Source of the DNA: an uncultured Bacilli bacterium
GTDB lineage: Bacteria > Bacillota_I > Bacilli_A > RF39 > UBA660
DNA: 64,000 nucleotides
Assembly: GCA_944373145.1 (NCBI GenBank)
Contig: CALWAL010000001.1
Location: 64,105-128,104, forward strand
Direction: 5' to 3'
Part shown: positions 9,727-61,573 of the stretch, piece after piece
Layout: every line of letters begins with the position of its first letter
Position numbering within the stretch: position 1 is the stretch's first letter
Made by a program: the position numbers and the translations under genes
Notes under the pieces: generated by a model
What the model was told of the DNA's origin: nothing
Seen by the model: only the letters and a program-made list of their open reading frames with translations
The model's database searches: none

Positions 9727-9975
9727 TTATAAATATTCTGATATAACTTTTGGAAGACTTTCTTTCAAATCTTCATTAAATTTAACAATTAATACTTCTA
9801 ATAAATCTGGGTCAATAACCTCAATTATTTCGTCATTATTATATTCGGCAATAATATAATTTTGAATCTCTTCACGATCTATTAAATAAACATATTTTTT
9901 CTTTTTTTCTTTAACGATTGAAACTACTGTATATTTTTTTCCATCGCTTAAAGTCCATGTAGATCCTTGTTCCAT
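9727..9975 (-). CDS. Small acidic protein, DUF1292-like.
   Basis: YTVVSIV...YVYLIDREE...IIEVIDPDLLE pattern typical of DUF1292. Start chosen at MEQGS, directly after the stop of the upstream gene. Confidence 0.4.
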   Translation of the reverse strand: MEQGSTWTLSDGKKYTVVSIVKEKKKKYVYLIDREEIQNYIIAEYNNDEIIEVIDPDLLEVLIVKFNEDLKESLPKVISEYL

Positions 9976-9976
9976 A

Positions 9977-11545
9977 TTATCGACGCCCCTTTTTAATTTC
10001 TTCAACTTCCTCAATTGCTTGTTCCATATCCTCTATGTCTTCTATTTCTTCATTTAAACCGTTTATTTTTTTGCGATGTTTTAAATATTTTACAAAAGCC
10101 ACAAATGAAGTACCCATACCTGCTAATAAGGCAGTGAATTTACCAACATCTGGTAAAATTCCACTTAAACCTAAACTGCCATTACCTAATTGACTTAGTG
10201 CTGTAACACAATTTTTTGAAGCTGTAAGTGGATCAACTTTAAAAATAAGTGCTAAAACTGCAACTGGAATAAATCCTGCTCCAATTAAAAGAAGTGCTAA
10301 AGTCTTTTTCTTTTCTATTTTTTCTACTTCTTTTTCTTTTTTTATAATTTGTAAACGTCTTTGAACTAATTGTGTTGTTTCTTTATCAACCGGATCATGA
10401 GGTTCAATAAAACCATCACCATCTTTATTTAATGACGAAATATCTGGGCTCCGTGGGATTAATTCTTCAATTACTTCCTCCGATTGCGCTGGTTCCTCTA
10501 CATGTAATGTTGAACCGTTTTGATAAAGTTCTAATATCTCATCATATGGCAAATTATAAGCCGGTCTTAAAATATCAAAAGTTCTTTTCAAACATGAAAT
10601 TGGATAATGTAAATCTAAATCCTTTAATTTTTTAACTCGTTCTTCAAGGGAAATATCTTTTATCATTAAAATTTTATAAACCCTTTTTTCATCTTGCTCT
10701 AAGCGGTATAAACTATAAGCAATATCATCCACTTCATCTGCTTTTTTCATCTTATTTAAATAATCAATAATAAATGTTGAATCAAATACATCTTCATCCA
10801 TTAATTTTTGATAAATTGTATGTGCTAATTCTTGATTGTCATCAATACCTTTAAACCTTTCAATAAAAAATGGTTCATATTTTTTATAAAATAAATTAAT
10901 TACTTCATCGATGATTTCTTCATCTAATCCCGAATCATTCAATGCGTAACGTAAATGACCAAAAGATAAAAAGTTTTTTGTATAATAATTGATTAGATCG
11001 TTTGCGACACCTTCAATAATCCTATCTCGATTTGTGCTATTTACATACGAACTAAATCTTGAGGTTGCAACTGAACGATTAATAAAAATTCGATAAAATT
11101 CTTTAACTTTATTACTACTATCTAGAACGCCAGCACTTATGGCTTGTTCAACTCCATTAATAATTTCACTAAAAGGCATTTTCCCTAATTCATACAAACT
11201 TTTAGCAATCTCAAAATCACTCTTATCCTCGCTTTTAGCTTGCTTTAAACAAGCAACTATTTTACTAAGGCGTTGATTTTGCTCTTGTCTTTCTTTATCT
11301 TTTTTTCTTTCTATGGAAGCTTTAGCTGCCAATCTTTGTCGTTCCCTTGCAATAATATAATCGCATATAGCTTTAGGTTCAAATTGTCCACCAGTGGCAA
11401 TATTTAAATTAAATGACTCGGCAATTTTACGAGAAGCATCACGCGAAATCAAAATTCTCCCATCTTCAGCTTTTACAAAATCTTTTTCTGGATTTATATA
11501 TTTAAGCAAAATTTCCTTCTTTTGATCATTTGTTAAATTCATCAT
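9977..11545 (-). CDS. Hypothetical 522-aa protein with a C-terminal hydrophobic hairpin, probably membrane-anchored.
   Basis: Long ORF with a Lys/Glu-rich coiled region and C-terminal TM segments (LALLLIGAGFIPVAVLALIF ... ALLAGMGTSFVAFV). Confidence 0.5.
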   Translation of the reverse strand: MMNLTNDQKKEILLKYINPEKDFVKAEDGRILISRDASRKIAESFNLNIATGGQFEPKAICDYIIARERQRLAAKASIERKKDKERQEQNQRLSKIVACLKQAKSEDKSDFEIAKSLYELGKMPFSEIINGVEQAISAGVLDSSNKVKEFYRIFINRSVATSRFSSYVNSTNRDRIIEGVANDLINYYTKNFLSFGHLRYALNDSGLDEEIIDEVINLFYKKYEPFFIERFKGIDDNQELAHTIYQKLMDEDVFDSTFIIDYLNKMKKADEVDDIAYSLYRLEQDEKRVYKILMIKDISLEERVKKLKDLDLHYPISCLKRTFDILRPAYNLPYDEILELYQNGSTLHVEEPAQSEEVIEELIPRSPDISSLNKDGDGFIEPHDPVDKETTQLVQRRLQIIKKEKEVEKIEKKKTLALLLIGAGFIPVAVLALIFKVDPLTASKNCVTALSQLGNGSLGLSGILPDVGKFTALLAGMGTSFVAFVKYLKHRKKINGLNEEIEDIEDMEQAIEEVEEIKKGRR

Positions 11546-13616: not shown

Positions 13617-15407
13617 CTATATTAATTTTTCTAATTCGGCCAATTTATCATCAAACATCTTGATTGCTTTTTCAATTGGTAACGATGTTGTCATATCAAC
13701 ACCAACACGTTTTAAAATCTCTAATGGGTAATCAGATCCACCGCTTTTTAAAAACTCTAAGTATGCTATTTTTGTTTTTTCATTACCTGCTAAAATATCA
13801 CTAGCAATAGCTATTGCCGCTGATAATCCAGTAGCATATTTGTATACATAAAAAGGCGTATAGAAATGAGGTATTCTTGACCATTCATACCTTATATAAT
13901 CATCACTAACCACATTATCTCCGTAATATAATTTATTAAGTTCATAATATGTGCTACTTAATTCTTCTTCTGTAATTGGTGTACCCATTTCATATTTATC
14001 ATGCATAATTTTTTCAAATTCTGCAAACATTGTTTGACGATAAATCGTCGTACGTACTTTATCTAAGAATTCTGTTAAATATAAAATCTTTTCATTTTTA
14101 CTTTCAGCATGCTGATATAAGTAATCATTTAATAAAACTTCATTAACTGTCGATGCAATTTCTGCTAAAAAGATTGGATAATTGCAATTAAAAGAATTTT
14201 GATACTTATTAGAATAATAACTATGCATCGAATGGCCTAATTCGTGAGCCATCGTACTAACAGAATCAGTTGTATTATCGTAATTTAAAAGCAAATATGG
14301 ATAAGTACCATAGCTACCCCAACTGTAAGCTCCAGATTTTTTACCGATATTTGGATATTTATCAATCCAGCGCTCATCAAAAGCCTTGTTTAAATCTTCA
14401 ATATACTGTGAACCTAAAGGTTTTAAAGCGCCAAAAACTAATTTTTTACCTTCATCAAAAGGAATATTTTTAACTTCATCATCAATAATATCAACATAAA
14501 TATCATACATATGCATTTGATCAAGTCCTAATACTCTCTTCCGCAAATCCATATATCTATACATTGATGGCAAACTTTTATGTATCGAAGCAATTAGATT
14601 ATTATAAACATCAATACTAATATCATCATTATATAAACTTTTTTCTAATGGATTATTATACTTGCGAACTTTACTTAGGAAAAAATCTTCTTTTATTTGA
14701 CCTATATAAGCTGCCGAAATTGTATTTTTAAAGCTTTTAAAATACTCATACATTGCAGAAAACGCCGAAATTCTAACTTCCCTTTTACGACTATTCATAA
14801 GCTTAATATAATTACTATTAGTTACTTCAACTTCGTCACCATTTTCATCAATTATTTTACCTAACTTCATATCAGCATTATCAAAATTATAAAAAACTTC
14901 TGATCCTGTTCCTAAAGCGTTACATGCATTACTAATAAGTTCCTCTTCTTGCTCTGATAAAGTATGTTCTTTGTATCTAAATATCTTTTCTAAGTCAAAT
15001 TTAAACGCTTCTAAATCCTTATTTTCAGATATGTATTTTAAAACTAATTCATAATCAACACTTAAAATTTCAGGAGTACAATATGATAATTGCGTACTTA
15101 TATCCTCAAATAATTTTTCAGCTTTGGCTTTCCTTGCTTTATATTCCGCATTTGTTGTATCAGTATCACATTGCATTTTTGCATACAAATATACCTTATC
15201 ACTTAAAATATTCATTTTATCATAGGCCTTATAAAATTCATATAAAGTCTTATTACTTTCCATAATACGACCTTTATAAGTTAAAACATCATCAACTAAT
15301 TTTGGCACTTCGTTTAATGCTTCTTCCCACGCTTGAGGTGTTTCAAATATGTTTTCTAAATCCCATGTATCTACAACATCAATTTCATTTCTTTTCTTGA
15401 TAGCCAT
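13617..15407 (-). CDS. pepF: Oligoendopeptidase F (M3B family).
   Basis: HELGHSMH zinc motif. M3-type length. Start set at MAIKKRNEIDVVDTWDL, which has a GGAGA RBS. Confidence 0.8.
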   Translation of the reverse strand: MAIKKRNEIDVVDTWDLENIFETPQAWEEALNEVPKLVDDVLTYKGRIMESNKTLYEFYKAYDKMNILSDKVYLYAKMQCDTDTTNAEYKARKAKAEKLFEDISTQLSYCTPEILSVDYELVLKYISENKDLEAFKFDLEKIFRYKEHTLSEQEEELISNACNALGTGSEVFYNFDNADMKLGKIIDENGDEVEVTNSNYIKLMNSRKREVRISAFSAMYEYFKSFKNTISAAYIGQIKEDFFLSKVRKYNNPLEKSLYNDDISIDVYNNLIASIHKSLPSMYRYMDLRKRVLGLDQMHMYDIYVDIIDDEVKNIPFDEGKKLVFGALKPLGSQYIEDLNKAFDERWIDKYPNIGKKSGAYSWGSYGTYPYLLLNYDNTTDSVSTMAHELGHSMHSYYSNKYQNSFNCNYPIFLAEIASTVNEVLLNDYLYQHAESKNEKILYLTEFLDKVRTTIYRQTMFAEFEKIMHDKYEMGTPITEEELSSTYYELNKLYYGDNVVSDDYIRYEWSRIPHFYTPFYVYKYATGLSAAIAIASDILAGNEKTKIAYLEFLKSGGSDYPLEILKRVGVDMTTSLPIEKAIKMFDDKLAELEKLI

Positions 15408-15475
15408 TGTTATCTCCAATCTATTTATATTTAACATTAAAGTTCTAGATTTGTTCTAGAACTTTACAACATTTA

Positions 15476-17299
<1,824 letters not shown>

Positions 17300-17383
17300 T
17301 CAATAATCTTAAAATTAACACAATTGATAAAGATAATATCACACAACCTAAAAATAGTACGATAAATAATTGCATAAAATCAC

Positions 17384-17953
17384 CTATTCGCTTACCTTAA
17401 CCATAGCTGTACGAATAACTTTATCTTTTAACAAATAACCTTTTTGTAATATTTCAATGACCATCCCAGGTTCAACTCCTTCACGTTTTTCTAATAAGAT
17501 CGCATTATGATAAACAGGATTAAATGGGATATTATTAGTGTCAATCATTTTAACATCAAATTTTTCCATTACATTTTGTAAATGTGTATATACCATTTTA
17601 AAACCATCTAAAAATTTTTTCTCTTCATCAGTCAAATTAGTATCCATACTGATTGCTCTTTCAAAATTATCCAAAATTGGTAAAATATCTTTAATTAAAT
17701 CTTCATTACAAAATTTAAGCATGCGATTTACTTCTTCTTCTTTGCGTTTACGATAATTAACCATATCGGCATTTTGTCTAATTAACTTATCTTCCAACTC
17801 ACTTATTTTATTATAAGCATCATTCAACTTATTTTTGTGTTCTTTTTCTTGCTCTTCAGTAATTGCTTCTACTACCTCTTCTGACTTCTTATCTTGTTGT
17901 GATTCGACAACCTCTACCTTAGGGCAAGCCTCTTCTTTAACTTTTTCTCCCAT
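17384..17953 (-). CDS. grpE: Nucleotide exchange factor GrpE.
   Basis: Coiled N-terminus. Position between hrcA and dnaK. Conserved C-terminal beta domain (GMVIEILQKGY). Confidence 0.85.
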   Translation of the reverse strand: MGEKVKEEACPKVEVVESQQDKKSEEVVEAITEEQEKEHKNKLNDAYNKISELEDKLIRQNADMVNYRKRKEEEVNRMLKFCNEDLIKDILPILDNFERAISMDTNLTDEEKKFLDGFKMVYTHLQNVMEKFDVKMIDTNNIPFNPVYHNAILLEKREGVEPGMVIEILQKGYLLKDKVIRTAMVKVSE

Positions 17954-18951
17954 TAGTCCTCCTTACCTATATTATTCATAATATAGTTTAATAATGTTAT
18001 TACTCGATCATATTCCATGCGTTTTGGACCTATTAGAGCAATTGTACCCTCTTCACCATTTACTGTATACTTGGTCTTAATAACGGTTACATCATCATCA
18101 ATATTGTTTTCACTACCAATATAAATGTTAATGCCATTATCCTCTTCTTCAATACTCTTAACTAATTCTTTATCTTCGAACTTGCTAATAATATCGCGAA
18201 TCTTATCCGCATCATTGAATTCTGGTTGCATTAATATATTTTTAGTGCCAGACATCTTAATACTTTCTGCTGTAGTAAAATCATTGAAGGCATTATAGAA
18301 AGCATTATATAAGATTTCATGTTGTTCTACATAAGTTGAAATAATTGGTTTGACTTGGAACTCTAAAAAACTACTAACCTCATCAATTGGAGTTCCAACA
18401 ATTAACTTATTTATTAAATCAACTGTTTTACTAACTTCTTTTGCCTCAACATTACCATCAAGATAAATATTTTTATGATCAACGTGACCTTTATCAGTAA
18501 CAATGATAGCTACCATATTATGTTTATCAATTGGAATAACTTCAACCTTAGAAATCAAGTTATCTTTTGATGTTTTCCCTAAAACAATTGCCGTATAATT
18601 TGTTAATTGCGAAACAATTTCCATACTTCTAGCAATAACATCACTAACAACTAATGATTTATTATTAACAATTGTTTGTAATTTTAACATATCATCACCG
18701 GTTAACTCTTTAGGCTGCATGATATGGTCAACATAATAACGATAACCTTTTTCACTTGGTACACGGCCACTTGAAATATGTTCTTTTTCTAATAGATTAT
18801 AGTCCTCTAACAAACTCATTTCTGCTCTAATAGTAGCACTTGAACAATTCATAATTTCGCACAAAGATTTTGAACTTACTGGGCGAGCAGTTTTAATATA
18901 ATCTTCAACAATTAATTTTAATAAATGTTCTTGTCGATTAGTTAATACCAT
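17953..18951 (-). CDS. hrcA: Heat-inducible transcription repressor HrcA.
   Basis: N-terminal winged HTH (LTNRQEHLLKLIVEDYIKTARPVSSKSL). First gene of the hrcA-grpE-dnaK operon. CIRCE lies upstream. Confidence 0.88.
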   Translation of the reverse strand: MVLTNRQEHLLKLIVEDYIKTARPVSSKSLCEIMNCSSATIRAEMSLLEDYNLLEKEHISSGRVPSEKGYRYYVDHIMQPKELTGDDMLKLQTIVNNKSLVVSDVIARSMEIVSQLTNYTAIVLGKTSKDNLISKVEVIPIDKHNMVAIIVTDKGHVDHKNIYLDGNVEAKEVSKTVDLINKLIVGTPIDEVSSFLEFQVKPIISTYVEQHEILYNAFYNAFNDFTTAESIKMSGTKNILMQPEFNDADKIRDIISKFEDKELVKSIEEEDNGINIYIGSENNIDDDVTVIKTKYTVNGEEGTIALIGPKRMEYDRVITLLNYIMNNIGKED

Positions 18952-19012
18952 TCTTTCACCTTCTTCTAGCACTTCCACTTTTCATGTGCTGACATAATTA
19001 TAGCACCCTGTT

Positions 19013-19039
19013 TTAGCAAAGTCAATAGTTGAGTGCTAA
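19013..19039 (-). promoter_or_regulatory. CIRCE operator (HrcA binding site).
   Basis: TTAGCAAAG-N9-GAGTGCTAA. Relative to hrcA it reads TTAGCACTC-N9-cTTtGCTAA, against the consensus TTAGCACTC-N9-GAGTGCTAA. One half is perfect and the other has 2 mismatches. Confidence 0.75.
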
Positions 19040-19416
19040 TAAATAAAAAAAAAGAATTTTCTTAATTATATTCTACTTTATTGTCCACTGTTTATATTAA
19101 TTATTAAATAAAAATTCAGTTCTTTTTCAATTAAAATATTTATTAAAAACATCACTACTTAATAATTCTACCTAAACAATTACATACTAAATAGTGATGA
19201 TTTATTTTTTATTAGCAACAAATTATCCACATATTATTCCCATATATTATTATTTTCAAATAATTATTTTTTTATTTTACTAAATTCTTTCTATCTTATT
19301 ATAATTATCACTATATCTAAAAAATATGTAATTCAAACAAGATTATATTTACTTTTTTATAATAGATGTAAAAATTAAAATTTATTATTATTTATTACTT
19401 AAATTTAAAAAAGGAC

Positions 19417-19553
19417 TTGACAATTTTATCTTTTTAGATTAGTATATACAGTACCAATTCGAGAAAGCGAATTGGAAGCTAGTATCACACTAGCCAACCC
19501 CTTTTTATTCTTTTATGGAAGCTGTTCTTCAGGGGGGCAGCTTCTTTTTTTTA
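19417..19553 (+). ncRNA. Candidate small RNA gene, copy 1. It has a sigma-A-like promoter (TTGACA-17-TAGTAT), a conserved ~70-nt body with two hairpins, and an intrinsic terminator.
   Basis: Seen directly. -35 at 19417-19422, -10 at 19440-19445. Hairpins CCAATTCG-AGAAAG-CGAATTGG and GCTAGT-ATCAC-ACTAGC. Terminator GAAGCTG..CAGCTTC followed by T8. Confidence 0.5.
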
Positions 19554-19570
19554 CTTTTTTTTAAAATAAC

Positions 19571-19708
19571 TTGACAAATTCTTTTTTTTCAATTAATATA
19601 TACAGTACCAATTCGAAAAAAGCGAATTGGAAGCTAGTATCACACTAGCCAACCCCTTTTTATTCTTTTATGGAAGTTGCCTTTAAATGTGCAACTTCTT
19701 TTTTTGTA
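19571..19708 (+). ncRNA. Candidate small RNA gene, copy 2. Near-identical body with its own promoter (TTGACA-17-TAATAT) and a different terminator hairpin.
   Basis: Body identical to copy 1 except one extra A in the hairpin-1 loop. Terminator GAAGTTGC-CTTTAAATGT-GCAACTTC plus T7. Confidence 0.5.
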
Positions 19709-19736
19709 TTTAAAAGAGTTGGAAAACCAACTCTTA
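19708..19736 (-). terminator. Terminator after tex; appears bidirectional.
   Basis: AGAGTTGG-AAAA-CCAACTCT hairpin immediately past the tex stop, with T-rich flanks on both strands. Confidence 0.5.
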
Positions 19737-21890
19737 TTTTTCAATTAGGGAAAGTGCAACCTTTCCTTTATCTTTATAGATTTCTTCAACATAACAATCA
19801 ACAATATCTCCAACGCTCAAAACTTCTGATGGGTGTTTAATATATTGCTTAGATATTTTAGATATATGTGCTAAAGCATCGTTATGAATACCTATATCAA
19901 TAAAGGCTCCGAAATCAACAACATTACGAACTGTTCCTTGTAGTTTCATTCCAACTTTTAAATCATCAATATTTAAAACATCACTTTTCAAAACAGGTTG
20001 TGGCATTTCATCACGTGGATCACGGTTTGGTTTTTTTAAACTGTCGACGACATCTTCTAAAGTGTAAATGTCTGTATTTAATCTATTTTTATATTCTTCT
20101 AAGTTTATATTGTCTAATTTACTAATTAAGGCTTCAGTTCCAACATCCGATAATTGGCATCCTAATTCTGCTAGTAACTTGTTAGCAATATCATAACTTT
20201 CAGGATGAATCCCTGTTGCATCTAAAATATTAATTCCTTCAGTTATTCTCAAAAAGCCTATTGCTTGTTCGTAAGCTTTATCGCTTAAAAGTTTATTCTT
20301 TTTAATTTCTTCACGTGAATTAATACGTCCAACTTTTTCACGATAAGATATTATTTTTTCTATATTCTTTTTATTAATCCCCGATACATATTTTAAAAGG
20401 GATGAAGATGCAGTATTGACGTTAACGCCAACACTATTAACAGCTTTGGTAACCACAAAATCTAAACTTTCTGATAGTTTTTTACTACTAACATCATGTT
20501 GATATAACCCAACACCAATACCTTCAGGAGGAACTTTAACTAATTCTGCCAAAGGATCTTGTAACCGACGCCCGATTGATACCGCGCTTCTTTTTTCAAC
20601 TGCTAAATTAGGAAATTCATCAATAGCAATTTGAGAAGCACTATAAATAGAAGCTCCAGCTTCTGAAACAATAACATATTTACAGGTTAGATTATATTCC
20701 TTAATCATTTCTGATACTAATTTTTCTGATTCACGGGAAGCTGTTCCATTACCGATTGCTATAATATCTACATGATATTTGTTAATTAATTTAACTACTT
20801 CTTCTTTAGTTTCTTTAATATGCCCTTCTTTATTACTATTTAAAAAAGGTTTCACTACAGTTGAATCTAAATATTTACCATTTTTATCAATTACAGCTAA
20901 TTTACATCCATTAACATATCCGGGGTCAAAAGCTAAAACTACTTTTTCCTTCATTGGTGGCGTTAGCAATAGACTTTCTAAATTTTTACCAAAATTGCTA
21001 ATGGCGGTCTCTTCTCCTTTTTCCGTTAAATCACTTCGAATTTCACGTTCAACCGACGGAAAAATCAAACGCTTATAACTATCCTCAATAGCTTCTTTAA
21101 TTTGTGGAGCACAAAAACTTTCTTTATTTTTTATATTTTTATCTTCTAGAAAATTAATAATTTCATCTTTATTAACATTAATTTTGACCGTTAAAATATA
21201 TTCTTTTTCTCCGCGATTAAGCGCTAAAATCCTATGGGGTTTAATTTTTGATACAGCTTCACTATAAGCATAATACATTTCATAGATTTTTCCTTCATCG
21301 ACAGCATTTTTCTTTAAACTTGATTCAATAATACCAAAACGATACATATTATTACGAATATATTTTCGAAAATAAGCATTGTCAGATATCCATTCTGCAA
21401 TAATATATTTTGCACCAGTAATAGCACTTTCAACGTCTTTTACATTATCATTAATAAATTTTTTTGCCATTTCTTGTAAACTACCTTTTGTTGGGCATGA
21501 CATTATCATTTTAGCAAGTGGTTCTAAACCATTTTTAATAGCTTCAGTAGCTTTAGTTTTTTTCTTTTCTTTGTAAGGCCTATACAAATCCTCAACCTCT
21601 ACCAACTTTTCGCAACTCATAATCTTATCTCTTAATTCATCTGTTAAAAGATCTTTTTCATCAATTAACCTAATAACATCTTCCTTGCGTTTTAATAAGT
21701 TAACTTGGTAAGTATATACCTCCTCAATTGTGCGAATTGCTTCTTCATCAAGATTACCAGTTACTTCTTTTCGATATCGTGAAATAAAAGGGATGGTATT
21801 TCCATCCTCCAATAGTTTTAATGTTGCTTCAATTTGTGTTTCTTTAATAGCTAAGCTATTACTTATTTGTTTAATTAGTAAGTTATTCAT
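19734..21890 (-). CDS. tex: Transcription accessory protein Tex (YqgF/RuvC-like, HhH and S1 domains).
   Basis: 718 aa. N-terminal IPFISRYRKE motif. Central YqgF-like and HhH region. C-terminal S1 domain (VGMKLQGTVRNVVDFGAFIDIG). Confidence 0.9.
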   Translation of the reverse strand: MNNLLIKQISNSLAIKETQIEATLKLLEDGNTIPFISRYRKEVTGNLDEEAIRTIEEVYTYQVNLLKRKEDVIRLIDEKDLLTDELRDKIMSCEKLVEVEDLYRPYKEKKKTKATEAIKNGLEPLAKMIMSCPTKGSLQEMAKKFINDNVKDVESAITGAKYIIAEWISDNAYFRKYIRNNMYRFGIIESSLKKNAVDEGKIYEMYYAYSEAVSKIKPHRILALNRGEKEYILTVKINVNKDEIINFLEDKNIKNKESFCAPQIKEAIEDSYKRLIFPSVEREIRSDLTEKGEETAISNFGKNLESLLLTPPMKEKVVLAFDPGYVNGCKLAVIDKNGKYLDSTVVKPFLNSNKEGHIKETKEEVVKLINKYHVDIIAIGNGTASRESEKLVSEMIKEYNLTCKYVIVSEAGASIYSASQIAIDEFPNLAVEKRSAVSIGRRLQDPLAELVKVPPEGIGVGLYQHDVSSKKLSESLDFVVTKAVNSVGVNVNTASSSLLKYVSGINKKNIEKIISYREKVGRINSREEIKKNKLLSDKAYEQAIGFLRITEGINILDATGIHPESYDIANKLLAELGCQLSDVGTEALISKLDNINLEEYKNRLNTDIYTLEDVVDSLKKPNRDPRDEMPQPVLKSDVLNIDDLKVGMKLQGTVRNVVDFGAFIDIGIHNDALAHISKISKQYIKHPSEVLSVGDIVDCYVEEIYKDKGKVALSLIEK

Positions 21891-21897
21891 ACTTCAC

Positions 21898-22401
21898 CTA
21901 TTCTATACTTTTAGCGTTTAAATTTTCCATCAATTCTTCTTTATACATAAGTCCAGCACGACTAAATACTACATCCCCTTCACTCATAACTAATAAAGTT
22001 GGAATAATAATTTGTGGGTTTTTATAATTCATAACATCCGTTACATCATCTATAACAATGGAATATTGTTCATCATTTAAATCTTGACGATTTAAAATAT
22101 ATACTACAGCTTCACGCTCAGAAAAAGCAATTTTAATTTCTTCTAAAAAAGTTTGACTTATTTCATCTTCTTCATTATAAATCAAAATAGCATAAGTTTC
22201 TGTTTCATATGCCTCTGAACGAAGTTCTAAATATTTGTCATAATCAATATACTCAATAGTTGCTGTTGTTGGTTTAACTTCTTCAACAGCTGGCTCTTTT
22301 TTTTCGTCATCCCGTGCTATAATCAAATATATAATACTTCCTAGTAATACAGTCGTAACAATAAAAAAGATAATTTTATTTCTTAATCTCATCTTAATCA
22401 C
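21898..22401 (-). CDS. Membrane-anchored protein with a thioredoxin-like C-terminal fold that lacks the CxxC motif.
   Basis: N-terminal TM (IIFFIVTTVLLGSIIYLII). C-terminal IIPTLLVMSEGDVVFSRAG resembles the thioredoxin PTLLxFKxGxxV region. No cysteine pair. Confidence 0.4.
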   Translation of the reverse strand: MIKMRLRNKIIFFIVTTVLLGSIIYLIIARDDEKKEPAVEEVKPTTATIEYIDYDKYLELRSEAYETETYAILIYNEEDEISQTFLEEIKIAFSEREAVVYILNRQDLNDEQYSIVIDDVTDVMNYKNPQIIIPTLLVMSEGDVVFSRAGLMYKEELMENLNAKSIE

Positions 22402-22445
22402 CGATTATATTATATCATAAACAATCTTTTTTTACATCACTATAA

Positions 22446-22470
22446 CAAAAAAAAGCTTTTGAAAAGCTTT
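22446..22470 (-). terminator. Rho-independent terminator closing the T7SS gene block.
   Basis: AGCTTTTGAAAAGCT palindrome followed on the minus strand by T8. Confidence 0.65.
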
Positions 22471-23463
22471 CTATTTTCCAAAGTTAAAAAATCCTTTTTT
22501 CTTTTTTGGCTTATCTTCTTTTTTTGGTTCTTCTTTAACATCGGGAAGATCAGTTATTTCTACTTCATCAACCTCTTCCTTTTTTGATTTACCTTCTTCA
22601 ATGTTAATTTCGTCTTCTACCGCTTCAAAAGCATCATCTTTTGGTTCATCAATAACCCCCGGGGCCTCAACATCTTCAAAGATTGAATCTTCATTATCTA
22701 AAATAACCATACCATTTTCATCAAATTTAACATCCACATTTTCTTCAACTGCTGTTGATCCTTCTGTTCCATCAGCTACAACAACGCCATTTTCATCGAA
22801 TTGATAATTTTTTAAAGTTTTAGACTCTTTTTTATCTTCAATTACAACACCGTTTTCATCAAAAACATAACGTGGTTCCTCAATTTTATCATTTTGATTA
22901 TTCGTTTCCTTATCGGCCACCACAATACCATTTTCATCAAATTGGTAGTTTCCTGAAGTTTTAGATTCTTTTTTATCTTCAATTACAATACCATTTTTAT
23001 CAAAAACATAACGTGGTTCCTCAACTTTATCATTTTGATTATTCGTTTCCTTATCAGATGCTACGACCTCAGAAGCTAACTTATCAGCTACTACAACACC
23101 GTTTTCATCAAATAAATATCCGCCATTTGCTTTTGGTGATAAAACAACATCAACCGTTTCATCTAACCTATTTTCATTATCAACTTCAGATTTTACGGAC
23201 TTTAACTCTACTGGTAAAGAACTAATAAAAATTTTAGACTCTTCATCTTTATATCCATAAGAATATAATTCAATAATATCGCTATGATTAAAATAATTTA
23301 TATCTTGGTTTTTGCTAAAGCCCTTTGGAAATGGCACACCAATATAATCATATCCTTGATTTTTATAACCTATAATAACTTGTTTATTATTTAAATTTTT
23401 AACAACACACACTGAGCCAAGTGGTAAAAACTTTAACTCCATAATCTCCCTCTTTTCCTTCAC
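22471..23463 (-). CDS. DUF4176-domain protein with about 6 C-terminal FDENGVV repeats.
   Basis: N-terminal FLPLGSVCVVKN...VIIGY...DYIGVPFPKG matches the DUF4176 pattern common in Firmicute T7SS loci. Repeated Y(Q/V)FDENG(V/I)V(V/I)(A/E)D units follow. Confidence 0.6.
   Translation of the reverse strand: MKEKREIMELKFLPLGSVCVVKNLNNKQVIIGYKNQGYDYIGVPFPKGFSKNQDINYFNHSDIIELYSYGYKDEESKIFISSLPVELKSVKSEVDNENRLDETVDVVLSPKANGGYLFDENGVVVADKLASEVVASDKETNNQNDKVEEPRYVFDKNGIVIEDKKESKTSGNYQFDENGIVVADKETNNQNDKIEEPRYVFDENGVVIEDKKESKTLKNYQFDENGVVVADGTEGSTAVEENVDVKFDENGMVILDNEDSIFEDVEAPGVIDEPKDDAFEAVEDEINIEEGKSKKEEVDEVEITDLPDVKEEPKKEDKPKKKKGFFNFGK
22800..23060. repeat. Intragenic tandem direct repeat: two copies of about 140 bp, roughly 90% identical.
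   Basis: Segments near 22818-22915 and 22958-23056 are near-identical (ttttagaCtcttttttatcttcaattacaa...cgtttccttatc). They encode the repeated 47-aa FDENGVV module. Confidence 0.7.
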
Positions 23464-23468
23464 GTTTT

Positions 23469-24008
23469 TTATTCTGCACTTATAACAACACCATTTTCAT
23501 CAAATTTAATATTGCTAAAAATTGGCCAATCTTTTCCTTCTTCAGTCGTTTCTTTTGATATCGATTGTTCATAGTTCATTTCTTTATGAAATGGATTATT
23601 AACTCCACCTACATCATTAGTGCTTATAACCTTCTCTTGAATTGGTTGCTCTTTTTTTTCTGTTTTAGTTGACGGTTGTGCAAAAATTACTACACCGTTT
23701 TCATCAAATTCAAAATTAGTAAAGACATTATTATTTATTGTTTTATTCTCTTGTTGACTATTTAATTTTTTGTTCAATAACTCAAAATCAGCATTTTTAT
23801 AACCCATATACTCAATTGTTAATATGTCTCCATGATTAAAACAAATACGATTTGATCCTAAAGTTCCTTCTGGATAAATACACCCTTGATAATCATATAA
23901 TTTTACTTTTTCTGTATAATCAAGTGCAAAATACCCCATAATCATGACTTTACGATTGCTCGCTTTAATTGTACATATAGAGCCAATAGGCAAAAATTTT
24001 TGATTCAT
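23469..24008 (-). CDS. DUF4176-domain protein (shorter paralog, 2 FDENGVV motifs).
   Basis: FLPIGSICTIK...VMIMGY...YQGCIYPEG N-domain. Start moved to MNQKF, which has an AGGAGA RBS. Confidence 0.6.
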   Translation of the reverse strand: MNQKFLPIGSICTIKASNRKVMIMGYFALDYTEKVKLYDYQGCIYPEGTLGSNRICFNHGDILTIEYMGYKNADFELLNKKLNSQQENKTINNNVFTNFEFDENGVVIFAQPSTKTEKKEQPIQEKVISTNDVGGVNNPFHKEMNYEQSISKETTEEGKDWPIFSNIKFDENGVVISAE

Positions 24009-24115
24009 AACATCTCTCCTACAGTTATTATAAAAATTATATCTAAAAATAATAAAAATTGCAACATATTCATTCAAATGTAACTAAAAAAAGATATAAC
24101 TTTTTAAGTTATACC

Positions 24116-24424
24116 TTAACTAACACTACTACCTCGATCTACAATCTCTTCAATAGCAATCATCGCAAGTGCACTATTAATTTCATCAATAGCTTCATCA
24201 TATTTTCTATTACTTTTATTTAACCAATCACGAATATCAATTAAATTTCTTCGCATTTGATTAATATATTGACAATATTCATTTAAATAGTTTGCATAAC
24301 GAAAATCACCAGGAATAGACATTGTATTATTAACAGAAATTAAATCTTCTAAATTGTCAATCGTTGAATCCAAACTAGGTAATACGTCTCTTGATATATC
24401 AATATTTTTAAAATTCAACTTCAT
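24116..24424 (-). CDS. Small helical T7SS-locus protein of unknown function, possibly a substrate or chaperone.
   Basis: 102 aa, predicted all-helical. Tightly packed (1-nt gap) behind the WXG100 gene. Confidence 0.4.
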   Translation of the reverse strand: MKLNFKNIDISRDVLPSLDSTIDNLEDLISVNNTMSIPGDFRYANYLNEYCQYINQMRRNLIDIRDWLNKSNRKYDEAIDEINSALAMIAIEEIVDRGSSVS

Positions 24425-24712
24425 CTAATCTCTCCTCAATGAATTTATTTCTTTTTCAAAATCATCAGCATCATCTACTAAATGTCTACCCAATTTATAA
24501 ATAGTATCCTTAAATTGAAAATATTGATTTTTTTCAGCATTAGCACGGTTAGCAAACGCTATCGATGCTTCACCAGTCCAAATCTCATGATTAGAAACAT
24601 TTGACAACTTATCAAAAAGAAGTTTAAAATCTTCATTTAGTGATAATGATAATTCCATCATACGATTACCACAATCACGCATTTTTATCGTATCAATTTT
24701 AATTTCTGCCAT
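24425..24712 (-). CDS. WXG100 family protein (EsxA-like).
   Basis: 95 aa. Central W-x-G motif (HEIWTGEASIAF). Helix-turn-helix length typical of WXG100. Confidence 0.75.
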   Translation of the reverse strand: MAEIKIDTIKMRDCGNRMMELSLSLNEDFKLLFDKLSNVSNHEIWTGEASIAFANRANAEKNQYFQFKDTIYKLGRHLVDDADDFEKEINSLRRD

Positions 24713-24721
24713 ATTTCCTCC

Positions 24722-24766
24722 CGATAAAAATTTTAGCTAACAACTGTTAGCTAAAATCTATTTAAT
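24722..24766 (-). terminator. Palindromic hairpin between T7SS small genes; possibly an intra-operon attenuator or terminator.
   Basis: TTTTAGCTAACA-AC-TGTTAGCTAAAA, an 8-bp stem flanked by T and A runs. Confidence 0.35.
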
Positions 24767-25090
24767 TTAATCTTCTTTAGCAGCTTCAGCTAAAGCCCTT
24801 TCTTCATCCTCTATAGCCCTTAAAATGCTATTAATTTTTTGATTAATTGCACTCATAACTTCTGAGGAAAGGAAGTTTTTTTTATCAATACAAGTAGTAC
24901 GCGCCTTTTTTAATTTATAATTATCGGCACTTACTTCATCAATTAGATAATAATCACTAACTTTTAAAGCTCTTTCAGAACTATCTATTACCCGCTCCAA
25001 ATGACGTATTGAATTTTGAACATCATCAGATAAATCGCGATAAGTACGTAATTGTCGATATAAACTTGAAAGGCTTGCCATTATTACCAC
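24767..25090 (-). CDS. Small helical protein (T7SS-associated, unknown function).
   Basis: 107 aa, coiled-coil-like. No WXG motif. Confidence 0.4.
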   Translation of the reverse strand: MVIMASLSSLYRQLRTYRDLSDDVQNSIRHLERVIDSSERALKVSDYYLIDEVSADNYKLKKARTTCIDKKNFLSSEVMSAINQKINSILRAIEDEERALAEAAKED

Positions 25091-25101
25091 CTAATTTCTA
25101 A

Positions 25102-25578
25102 TTATCTTTGTCTTGCGTATCTATCAACAGATTGAGATACTTCTTGACCAGCTGTATTTAAAGTATCGTTCATTGCTGCTTGTTGAGCTTCATAATTATC
25201 TTTAATTTCCATTAAAATATCGGCTAATTTTAATAATTGAGATGTGTAGGCACGACATGCATCCATTACACCACCAATATAAGCTTTACAAGCTTGTTGC
25301 ATACCTGGATCTGCAAATGCCTTACTTGGGTCTGTGTTAACATTTACTTCATTTAAATGATTTTCAATTGCTGCAACAGCACTATCAATTGCTGTTGTCA
25401 TATCGTTAATTTTATTTACATTAATTCCCACAACACTTCCTGGAATCAAAGAACCGATAGCTGCACTAGCTTGACTTTTAATACTATTAAAAGTATTTGA
25501 AATTGCATCAAGTGCATCATTAGCTCTAGCGCCAACCATAGAAGTGAATTGAAGGACCTCTGATTTAATTGTTGCCAT
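25102..25578 (-). CDS. Helical 158-aa protein, possibly EsxB/LXG-like or an atypical WXG100 relative.
   Basis: Ala/Ser/Asn-rich helical sequence. Immediately downstream of a WXG100 gene. Confidence 0.35.
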   Translation of the reverse strand: MATIKSEVLQFTSMVGARANDALDAISNTFNSIKSQASAAIGSLIPGSVVGINVNKINDMTTAIDSAVAAIENHLNEVNVNTDPSKAFADPGMQQACKAYIGGVMDACRAYTSQLLKLADILMEIKDNYEAQQAAMNDTLNTAGQEVSQSVDRYARQR

Positions 25579-25593
25579 TATTTATTCTCCTTC

Positions 25594-25926
25594 CTAAAAT
25601 ATAGATTGGCCACTAATTTCTTCAGCCATTCCAGTGTCTTCTGAATGATAAGTTTCTTCTTGAGCCGCAAGTGTAGCGTTAAAAACTTCTTCCATTTCTT
25701 GAAGTTTAGCTTTTAATGCTTCTGCTGATTCTGATAATTTAGCACAAAATGCATCGCATGCTTGTCCTTGCCATCCTTGTTGTAACGTATCCTTAATAAT
25801 TTCCGTTTGGTCTGTTATAATTCCATTTGTTTCAATAATTGCTGCTGTATTTAGCTCTGCAACATAAGCAGCTGCTCCAGTGGAACTATATCCAATAGTA
25901 ATATCCTCTATTCCTAATCCTCCCAT
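25594..25926 (-). CDS. WXG100 family protein.
   Basis: 110 aa. W-x-G motif (QQGWQGQACDAF). Helical hairpin length. Confidence 0.7.
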   Translation of the reverse strand: MGGLGIEDITIGYSSTGAAAYVAELNTAAIIETNGIITDQTEIIKDTLQQGWQGQACDAFCAKLSESAEALKAKLQEMEEVFNATLAAQEETYHSEDTGMAEEISGQSIF

Positions 25927-25939
25927 AAATTCACCTCCA

Positions 25940-26299
25940 TTAATATTTTTCCTTATATCTCTCTATGGAATTAGATAAGATCTCACCTTTAGCTATTGTA
26001 AAGTTCTTCTTTACAGTATTGTGAACACCATATATACGAGCTTTAACTTTAACTAAATCTTGAGAATAACACAAGATATTTTTATTAACAATTGGAAAAC
26101 TTTGGCGCAACTTGGCAAAAGAATTTCGAAAGTTTGTGCCACATTCACATTCATAAAAAGAAACAGTTCCGTCAACTAAATCTTCAAGTTCTAAAAATTG
26201 AGCTTTAATACGTTCTGCAATCTCTCCAATCTCTAAAACTAAATTATCTAGCTTAGGTTCATTAATTCCAAAAACTTCCTGTTGCTTCACTCTCGCCAC
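25940..26299 (-). CDS. Hypothetical 119-aa protein (T7SS-locus).
   Basis: ORF carrying a CECG motif. No recognisable family. Confidence 0.35.
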   Translation of the reverse strand: MARVKQQEVFGINEPKLDNLVLEIGEIAERIKAQFLELEDLVDGTVSFYECECGTNFRNSFAKLRQSFPIVNKNILCYSQDLVKVKARIYGVHNTVKKNFTIAKGEILSNSIERYKEKY

Positions 26300-26357
26300 T
26301 CCTATCCTATGCTAATCTAATATCTTTACTTAAGTATACCGATTTTTACTTAATAAA

Positions 26358-45611: not shown

Positions 45612-45978
45612 AACAATAACATTTCATAAGCCATGTTCTGTACCTATAAGGTGGCAAACATTTATCTACCAATTGCTTGGTCCCTAACTTAGTTCAATTT
45701 CCTTGTTAAAGCTCCCCTACCAAAATTTGGGTTTCTCGCTCGTGGGGTTTACCGCGTTCCACTTATTCTATTTCTAAAATATATCGTCACTATGGCACTT
45801 TTATACCTAATATAACCATATCATAAAGACTTAGGTTACCTCGGAGCCGTTAGCAAATGCTACTAAAGGTTATTTTTTCCCTTTACACGAACACTACAAA
45901 CATCGCAGTTTGTGCGAGCATGGACTTTCCTCTATATATCTATATGTAAATATACAGCGTTTGCCGAAATATTATTCT
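45612..45978 (-). ncRNA. rnpB: RNase P RNA, type B.
   Basis: The reverse complement contains AGAGGAAAGTCCATGCTCGCAC and GTGGAACGCGGTAAACCCCACGAGCGAGAAACCCAAATTTTGGTAGGGGA. Both are near-identical to B. subtilis rnpB. A P1 pairing between AAUAUUUCG (5') and UGAAAUGUU (3') defines the ends. Confidence 0.9.
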
Positions 45979-61191: not shown

Positions 61192-61573
61192 TTGTTTTTC
61201 CCTCCTTATTAATCAAAAATTTCTTCACTTCACAATTAAGCGGTTGATAGCTAATCAACTCCATAGGGATTCCACCTTCTTGAGTTTCACAAGACTACTA
61301 GAATAGAAGTATCATTATTGCTATTGTTTGTTATCGCATTATTAATAGCTACTTAATATTTATAACCAAGTATTAATCGCAAGCGTACTTGTTAACGTGC
61401 TAGAACAATAGGAATGTACTTAATTGTGTATATTAAATTGTCAAAGAGCATATATAGAGAAGGAATCTTTTATCAATAGTCACTTTAAATGAATAATCAA
61501 AATATAAAAAAAGGTATATAGTGATAATTTTATTCCTTCACTATATACCTCACTAAAAAGCTAAAAGTATAGT

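Follow-up and report, generated by a model that had tools for sequence, protein, structure and literature searches.

Tandem units next to tex in an uncultured gut Bacilli genome are paralogous members of a new, strongly conserved family of predicted small RNAs

What is encoded by two short units that lie head-to-tail in the gap between tex and hrcA and run against both of these genes? This question was raised by positions 19417–19712 (plus strand) of a 64,000-nt stretch of contig CALWAL010000001.1 from an uncultured Bacilli bacterium (GTDB lineage RF39; UBA660), which is denoted here as the window. A sequence-only reading of this stretch had described tandem promoter–RNA–terminator units, and had proposed a structured RNA of no known family rather than a peptide. 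On the evidence of sequence comparison, the two units are paralogous genes for a small non-coding RNA (sRNA) of ~100 nt that belongs to a previously undescribed family. Members of this predicted sRNA family occur in hundreds of uncultured gut Bacilli/Mycoplasmatota lineages and hardly vary among them.

The plus-strand segment is a direct repeat with a period of 154–155 bp, and in each unit a TTGACA-17-TAnTAT promoter precedes two hairpins, which are followed by the single-stranded tract CAACCCCUUUUUAUUCUUUU and by a terminator that belongs to that unit. In unit 1, the sigma-A-type promoter occupies 19417–19445, with TTGACA at 19417–19422, a 17-bp spacer and TAGTAT at 19440–19445. The predicted transcript of ~103 nt spans 19451–19553, for which the start was inferred from the −10 hexamer and the end from the U-tract. 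It contains the hairpin P1 (19454–19475; CCAATTCG, loop AGAAAG, CGAATTGG), an invariant 37-nt core (19478–19514) composed of the hairpin P2 (GCTAGT-ATCAC-ACTAGC) and the single-stranded CAACCCCTTTTTATTCTTTT, and the hairpin P3 (19517–19545), an intrinsic terminator with a G6 apex (GGGGGG, 19532–19537) followed by a U-tract at 19546–19552. Unit 2 follows the same plan, with a sigma-A-type promoter at 19571–19599 (TTGACA at 19571–19576, a 17-bp spacer, TAATAT at 19594–19599), a predicted transcript of ~102 nt at 19605–19706, and P1 at 19608–19630 (CCAATTCG, loop AAAAAAG, CGAATTGG). Its invariant 37-nt core at 19633–19669, again P2 plus the C/U-rich single strand, is the same sequence as that of unit 1, and its P3 terminator at 19672–19699 has an apex without a G-run (CCTTTAAATGTG) and a U-tract at 19699–19705. 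All of these features are on the plus strand. The consensus-like promoters with 17-bp spacers described in the sequence-only reading were hence found in both units, as were the differing P1 loops on preserved stems. The terminator stems also differ as it had described, being GGAAGCUG... in one unit and GGAAGUUGC... in unit 2.

Predicted folds reproduced the described order of two hairpins, an unpaired C/U-rich tract and a terminator, giving P1 as CCAAUUCG/CGAAUUGG, P2 as GCUAGU-AUCAC-ACUAGC, the unpaired C/U-rich CAACCCCUUUUUAUUCUUUUAU, and the terminator hairpin with U-runs. The folding energy was −33.1 kcal/mol for unit 1 (z = −4.0) and −27.9 kcal/mol for unit 2 (z = −4.9); fold z-scores ranged from −4.0 to −5.4, and none of 200 shuffles folded equally well. 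A covariance model of the family matched 19451–19551 with 105.6 bits and 19605–19705 with 101.7 bits, and these were the only two matches in the window, where the next best reached ~15 bits and all of the rest remained below 16 bits. A 36-nt probe from the body gave two exact matches in the 64 kb, against zero expected by chance. With two copies in 64 kb, a promoter at each and nothing else above noise, the dispersed REP-like repeat that the sequence-only reading had named as its alternative was rejected. The small open reading frame (ORF) of that reading is indeed not conserved between the copies, but its length of 16 aa was not reproduced, since the ATG at 19515 in unit 1 opens an ORF of 19 codons and the equivalent ATG at 19670 in unit 2 one of 56 codons. 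This ATG is not kept in the family and is missing from most homologues, so that a small-protein gene was also rejected. No Rfam 15 family reached its gathering score on the units or on 14 homologous loci, in line with the earlier failure to name a family; at E ≤ 10 only sub-threshold noise appeared, with ctRNA_pT181, SprD and RsaE at the top. The SRP, 6S, tmRNA and Y-RNA families were unmatched in Rfam, and ARAGORN predicted neither tRNA nor tmRNA genes within the window.

The family was delineated with two scans, for which all counts given here and below are among the matches listed. The first used an 18-mer from the single-stranded tract against contigs of one genome per GTDB species and gave at least 120 matches, of which ~118 of 120 were complete homologues with promoter, P1, P2, tract and P3; L095, L113 and L250 were discarded as chance matches to the 18-mer. 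The second was run on metagenomes, anchored on the P1 3′ arm and P2 with the tract left unconstrained, and also gave at least 120 matches. The exact CAACCCCTTTTTATTCTT seed was present in 115 of 117 metagenome copies found without using it, a TTGACW-N16-18-TANNNT promoter in 111 of the 112 copies with a 5′ flank, and GGGG in P3 in 103 of 111. Because the second scan left the tract unconstrained, ascertainment does not account for the invariance of the tract. Each scan nevertheless relied on exact identity to a portion of the core, and more diverged members lie outside their reach. The hosts were all uncultured gut metagenome-assembled genomes (MAGs) from human, goat, deer, rabbit, chicken, pig and mouse, with no cultured isolate among the genome matches. 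They are labeled Bacilli, Mollicutes, Tenericutes or Mycoplasmatota, including the named records Mycoplasma sp. CAG:611, Coprobacillus sp. CAG:605, Candidatus Fimihabitans and Candidatus Pelethosoma. We take these Bacilli/Mycoplasmatota MAGs to be RF39-like in the sense of GTDB. A literature search for the sRNA sequence strings or for an RF39 small RNA returned nothing relevant, and a BLAST search of GenBank phages and PLSDB plasmids gave no match to the sRNA. The first 200 of the 408 supplement files of a human-microbiome structured-RNA catalogue (PMC8040213) hold no sequence match either.

Structure was analyzed on 72 distinct sequences (alignment A2), in which 95% of the cells pair under the three-helix model, as compared with 19–49% for slid partners. 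Double-sided changes were found at all nine pairs of P3 and at four of the eight pairs of P1, where 96.5% of the cells pair, and the same three helices were returned by unguided RNAalifold. The covariation of P1 and P3, together with the lack of a conserved ORF, bears out the proposal of a structured RNA rather than a peptide. P2 exhibited no variation, so that none of its six stem pairs covary. The 37-nt block GCUAGUAUCACACUAGCCAACCCCUUUUUAUUCUUUU, comprising P2 and the C/U-rich strand, is unchanged in 72 of 72 aligned sequences, and only two variants of the seed were met, both with CCC for CCCC (L134, 475–560; L207, 3676–3760). In L134 the G-run of the P3 apex is also shorter (G4), which hints anecdotally that the C-tract and the G-tract may vary together. 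Across ~110 homologues the promoter hexamers are kept and the spacer varies; upstream of the −35 hexamer only A/T tracts are conserved, and apart from a semi-conserved GAT just 5′ of the −10 hexamer no conserved operator-like motif was seen.

The stem of P3 varies freely, and its apex carries G5 in 171 of 194 distinct units (88%), typically as UCA-G5-N. The U-tract after P3 is absent in 43 of the 194 units, which have a second hairpin further on and keep P3 itself, indicating that P3 is conserved beyond termination. For the “TTAGATAAA” subgroup, the transcript is expected to end at the second hairpin instead of the U-tract. Pairing of CCCC with GGGG is possible in ~86% of the sequences, in which the invariant C-tract leaves no covariation to read. 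The G-run is absent from unit 2, from ~12% of the lineages and from all of the phage copies described below, and the seed is constant in these; we infer that the G-run is an accessory element.

The two units are flanked by tex (19734–21890, minus strand) and by hrcA-grpE-dnaK-pepF (minus strand), and are therefore convergent with the former and divergent from hrcA. The sequence-only reading had placed them opposite the 3′ end of tex; the convergent arrangement was confirmed but an overlap was not, as the tex stop lies at 19734. A separate bidirectional terminator hairpin (19714–19735) is located at this 3′ end, outside the sRNA units. Similar orientations were observed across the family, where the upstream neighbor is divergent in 103 of 111 loci (RecG in 57 of them) and the downstream neighbor convergent in 82 of 108 (pyruvate:ferredoxin oxidoreductase, PFOR, in 32). 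A same-strand downstream ORF is present in the other 26 of the 108 loci and does not belong to one gene family. A promoter of its own was found for recG, between recG and the sRNA gene, and hrcA also has its own promoter. Approximately 116 of 118 genomes carry one copy per locus. Gene orientation, single copy number and promoters together exclude that the units are leaders or riboswitches, dispersed repeats or peptide genes, and the earlier view that each unit is an independent, putative promoter–sRNA–terminator gene is supported. In 236 sRNA-bearing loci among L010–L249, 86% of the coding bases around the sRNA gene lie on the other strand, and GC skew is negative along the sRNA sense strand in 215 of the 236; together these place the gene on the lagging strand. 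A strongly promoted sRNA gene thus appears to be kept head-on to replication, which may merely reflect one inherited ancestral arrangement.

The tandem pair is limited to the lineage of the window, namely the window itself, L003/L004 and L040. The ancestral state is a single copy between recG and PFOR, and the tandem next to tex is a lineage-specific duplicate. A relative (L003/L004) whose Tex is 86% identical has the same tandem pair with bodies that are 97–99% identical; L005 (82% Tex identity) has a single copy ~1 kb beyond tex, and no copy was found within 3 kb in L007–L009 (78% Tex identity). Unit 1 kept the G-run (G6) on a diverged P3 stem. The P3 stem of unit 2 (GGAAGUUGC...) matches that of the single-copy L005, which retains G5, and the apex of unit 2 has decayed to CACAGAGGAG in L003 and to CCUUUAAAUGUG in the window. 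Since this decay is found in both, the duplication predates the split of their species. One duplicate has been freed from the G-tract constraint, with the core intact in both. An apparent second duplication, consisting of two non-identical copies ~790 bp apart around a recG 5′ fragment (L178, 1–1115), was left uncounted because this 1.1-kb metagenome contig may be an assembly artefact or two-strain chimera.

The core was also found outside the bacterial genomes. Of the phage sets searched, only IMG/VR contained such copies, the 18-mer matching five viral contigs in which the 37-nt core is identical but both P1 and the G-run are missing. They score 44–47 bits on the model; the core regions are L251 6330–6560 (+), L252 4225–4500 (−), L253 10530–11250 (−), L254 7960–8181 (+) and L255 9375–9600 (−), and the IMG/VR contigs include UViG_3300045988_029989, _084227 and _108978. 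In each contig the core is located directly 3′ of a tRNA-like ...ACCA end; as evidence for tRNA, L252 and L254 gave an Rfam match of 35 bits, and L253 gave tRNA-like elements below threshold. Around the block there are ~700 nt of non-coding sequence, in which several T-arm-like hairpins occur; RecT/SSB/HNH and a regulator-like gene lie on one side and terS/terL, portal and head genes on the other. A long hairpin of ~95 nt follows 3′ of the phage core, with a sub-threshold c4-2-like match in L253. On the host side, two same-strand tRNA genes occur within ~100 nt after the sRNA gene of Coprobacillus sp. CAG:605 (L017, 2209–2358, minus strand), which recall the tRNA-like elements beside the phage copies. 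The phage copies argue that P2 and the tract form a functional module acting in trans, and, together with the invariance of the core across hundreds of lineages, suggest an important trans-acting function that phages exploit. The width of the family, the lineage-specific tandem, the loss of the G5 apex in unit 2 and the phage-borne core all go beyond the sequence-only reading.

How might such an RNA act? Our best reading, a tentative one with slightly less than even confidence, is that of a trans-acting sRNA that represses translation through its C-rich seed, with the G-tract as an accessory, in the manner of RsaE/RoxS, LhrC and RsaI. Stand-alone action in trans is argued by the convergent and divergent neighbors, the separate promoter of recG, and the different context of the core in phages. 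The RNA would act through the invariant 37-nt module, of which the unpaired CCCCUUUUU would most likely pair with G-rich Shine-Dalgarno (SD) regions of the AAAAAGGGG type in a few mRNAs and block the initiation of translation. The G5 apex may fold back on the C-tract, as a self-mask or pseudoknot, or bind another C-rich RNA, and the invariant P2 probably presents the seed or binds a protein. This anti-SD model was ranked first because CCCCUUUUU between a hairpin and the terminator is the layout of anti-SD sRNAs in low-GC Gram-positive bacteria, and the predicted folds leave the C/U-rich tract unpaired.

Several observations weigh against it. Target sites in the model are those complementary to CCCCUUUUUAUUC at ribosome-binding sites, and when the seed was compared by RNAduplex with 54 start regions of the window it performed no better than shuffled seeds. 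SD sequences of the AAAAAGGGG type are rare, no recurrent gene family emerged from 1.76 Mb of loci, and PFOR start regions are not complementary to the seed. The promoter looks constitutive, which is atypical for the stress-regulated RsaE or LhrC, and a single C-tract is present as compared with several in these RNAs. The pairing of CCCC with GGGG is beyond the reach of covariation, as the C-tract never varies. Furthermore, 37 invariant nucleotides and a never-covarying stem exceed the usual need of a seed, and suggest a second partner, or one of another kind, for example a protein, a conserved RNA or the ribosome. The complementarity comparisons cover mRNA start regions and RNase P RNA, the loci containing no rRNA; the RNase P RNA of the window (class B; 45622–45972, minus strand; 290 bits, above the Rfam gathering score) showed lower complementarity to the core than to shuffled versions of it. 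The only window gene with a AAAAAGGGG ribosome-binding site, a perfect complement of CCCCUUUUU, is the ORF at 9727–10014 (minus strand). Its duplex of −17.7 kcal/mol is within the range of shuffled seeds, and it is regarded as a candidate target only.

An invariant stem of this kind is what would be expected if P2 and the pyrimidine tract, perhaps with the SD-like AGGGGGU apex of P3, served as a binding platform for the ribosome or for a conserved protein. In that case the units would encode a housekeeping ribonucleoprotein (RNP) component or a titrating RNA, acting by sequestration or as a subunit under the logic of 6S, CsrB or Y RNA. Such a role is considered fairly unlikely. It would account for the 37 invariant nucleotides with none of six stem pairs covarying, for the near-perfect, constitutive-looking promoter in ~99% of the copies, and for a single-copy gene that is syntenic across many lineages. 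The copying of exactly this module by phages is likewise expected of a mimic of a factor-binding RNA, and no mRNA target signal was found. However, no known protein-binding motif was recognizable, the loops lack GGA, and Rfam gave no 6S, SRP, tmRNA or Y-RNA match. The conserved neighbors RecG and PFOR are not partner-like, and the unpaired CCCCUUU beside the terminator is a textbook layout of an anti-SD seed.

A bolder variant starts from the phage copies. The 37-nt module would be the active part of a riboregulator or RNP RNA that is central and constitutively expressed in RF39-like gut bacteria, and phages would have captured this module verbatim and fused it to tRNA-like processing signals before their late operon, so as to hijack or neutralize the host function by RNA mimicry; the G5 apex would be a self-mask that both the phage version and unit 2 have dropped. 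We consider this unlikely as a whole. Phage mimics of host regulatory RNAs are exemplified by the pseudo-ToxI of phage phiTE and the prophage anti-sRNA AgvB.

Could the shared block instead be a DNA site? Conserved RNA genes such as those of tRNA and tmRNA are classic targets of phage integration, and the identity of 37 nt between the host genes and five viral contigs could be explained if the core were conserved mainly as an attB/attP core, with the phage copies as attP. The position of the phage block between the replication/regulator module and terS/terL/portal does not fit this explanation, nor does the lack of an integrase in the phage flanks examined. None of the ~240 host loci contains a host–phage junction, and the scan anchored on P1 and P2 gave only complete host-type genes with P3. 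Moreover, conservation in the host would be left unexplained, and the edges of the block coincide with edges of the RNA structure. An attachment site is hence very improbable.

The orientation of the gene allows for another role, namely that of a cis-antisense RNA or transcriptional insulator, in which a head-on unit between co-directional genes (from tex to hrcA, or from PFOR to recG) stops read-through. The opposition of the sRNA gene to 86% of the neighboring coding bases, with both flanks usually on the other strand, agrees with this. But such a role needs no invariance of sequence, separate terminators are already located 3′ of the upstream genes, recG and hrcA have their own promoters, and the phage copies are on the same strand as their neighbor genes, which leaves the insulator with little credibility. 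The RNA might also be a leader that controls a downstream gene in cis, as a riboswitch or attenuator does, with conditional termination at P3. This would suit the order of promoter, structured RNA and terminator, the possible CCCC:GGGG alternative pairing that touches the terminator apex, and the 26 of 108 loci with a same-strand downstream ORF. It is, however, effectively refuted by gene orientation: 82 of 108 loci, the window among them, have a convergent downstream gene, and the same-strand ones are not one family. In addition, 43 of 194 copies keep the P3 hairpin without a U-tract, and no riboswitch of Rfam matches.

RF39-like Bacilli/Mycoplasmatota are frequent inhabitants of animal and human guts, and no description of their RNA biology was found in our literature search. 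The sRNA would be the first strongly supported clade-wide small RNA candidate in these bacteria, backed by promoter, structure and covariation evidence that suffices for an Rfam family proposal and for metatranscriptome checks. The tandem duplicate without a G-run constitutes a natural experiment on the role of the G-run. As judged from nucleotide sequences, then, the family is a new and strongly conserved one of predicted sRNAs, and its mode of action is what we infer by analogy.

Several features around the units were also observed. The promoter of hrcA (18990–19045, minus strand) is TTGACT-17-TATAAT with an upstream TG, and it is surrounded by CIRCE-like inverted repeats (TTAGCACTC ... and GTCAGCAC-N-GTGCTAG), the usual arrangement of the HrcA operator; the start codon of hrcA is GTG. 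The spacer of ~370 bp from this promoter to unit 1 (19046–19416) is very AT-rich, and contains no ORF of ≥40 aa and no Rfam match. The gap between tex and hrcA is 755 bp in the window and 461 bp in L003. The heat-shock operon hrcA-grpE-dnaK and then pepF (oligoendopeptidase F) occupy 13617–18978, in which the ORF directly after dnaK is not dnaJ. Upstream of tex, at ~21898–26300, a cluster of ~100-aa ORFs and two DUF4176 proteins have the look of type VII secretion or WXG100-type cargo. A pemK RNA (61261–61318, minus strand) scored 47 bits, above its Rfam gathering score; besides the RNase P RNA it was the only such Rfam match in the window.

How does this sRNA compare with known systems? As in the phage-borne mimics named above, a phage carries the exact core of a host small RNA. 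Unlike in ToxI systems, no toxin gene adjoins that of the host sRNA, which also does not consist of the short tandem repeats of such an antitoxin; a type III antitoxin RNA was rejected, as the units are ~155 bp with their own promoters, versus repeats of ~36 nt, and no conserved co-oriented gene follows. The closest resemblance in layout is to anti-SD sRNAs, for which UCCC motifs of LhrC, RsaE, SprD and FsrA were reported to bind SD sequences (PMC4132741). RoxS has several C-rich regions, of which CCCCUUUGUU (CRR3) pairs with the SD of ppnKB and blocks 30S binding (PMC4409812). Like RsaE/RoxS of Bacillales, the window RNA is a ~100-nt sRNA with its own promoter and terminator, conserved well beyond the species level, and has an unpaired CCCCUUU-type tract 5′ of the terminator (CCCCUUUGUU in RoxS, CCCCUUUUUA in the window). 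The RsaE/RoxS model (RF01820) aligned with “CA-CCCCUUU-U” plus the terminator in both units at 14–16 bits only (15.9 bits for unit 1 and 14.4 bits for unit 2), against a gathering score of 79. The window RNA differs in having one C-tract, as CCCCUUUUUA, versus three to four (CRR1–4) with a duplicated CCCCUUUGUU in RoxS. Its 5′ domain (P1 and the invariant P2), G5 apex and gene context are different, and its promoter looks constitutive. No conserved upstream motif was seen that resembles those of ResD/SrrA, which control the RsaE/RoxS promoter along with Rex.

Four of the LhrC copies lie next to one another, each with a terminator of its own. The window, L003 and L040 resemble LhrC1–5 of Listeria monocytogenes in their near-identical copies, each with its own promoter and terminator. 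LhrC, however, carries UCCC three times (twice in loops and once in a single strand) and needs LisRK, whereas the sRNA described here has a single CCCC in a single strand and the loops AGAAAG/AAAAAAG and AUCAC. Its multicopy state is limited to one lineage, and the Rfam model of LhrC gave no match even at E ≤ 10. RsaI has G-tracks and a long CU-rich unpaired region that binds ribosome-binding sites, a pseudoknot between these two conserved regions was proposed, and its G-track binds C-rich sRNAs (bioRxiv 10.1101/278127). A hairpin G-tract and a CU-rich region, the latter unpaired in the predicted folds here, make this conserved sRNA resemble RsaI/RsaOG of Staphylococcus. RsaI differs in its length of 144 nt and its control by CcpA, and exhibits no similarity in sequence or covariance model, the RsaOG model of Rfam being unmatched; here, in addition, the G-run is dispensable in ~12% of the lineages. 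The sRNA is accordingly not a member of RsaE, LhrC or RsaI, having been placed outside all three by these comparisons, but an analogue of them.

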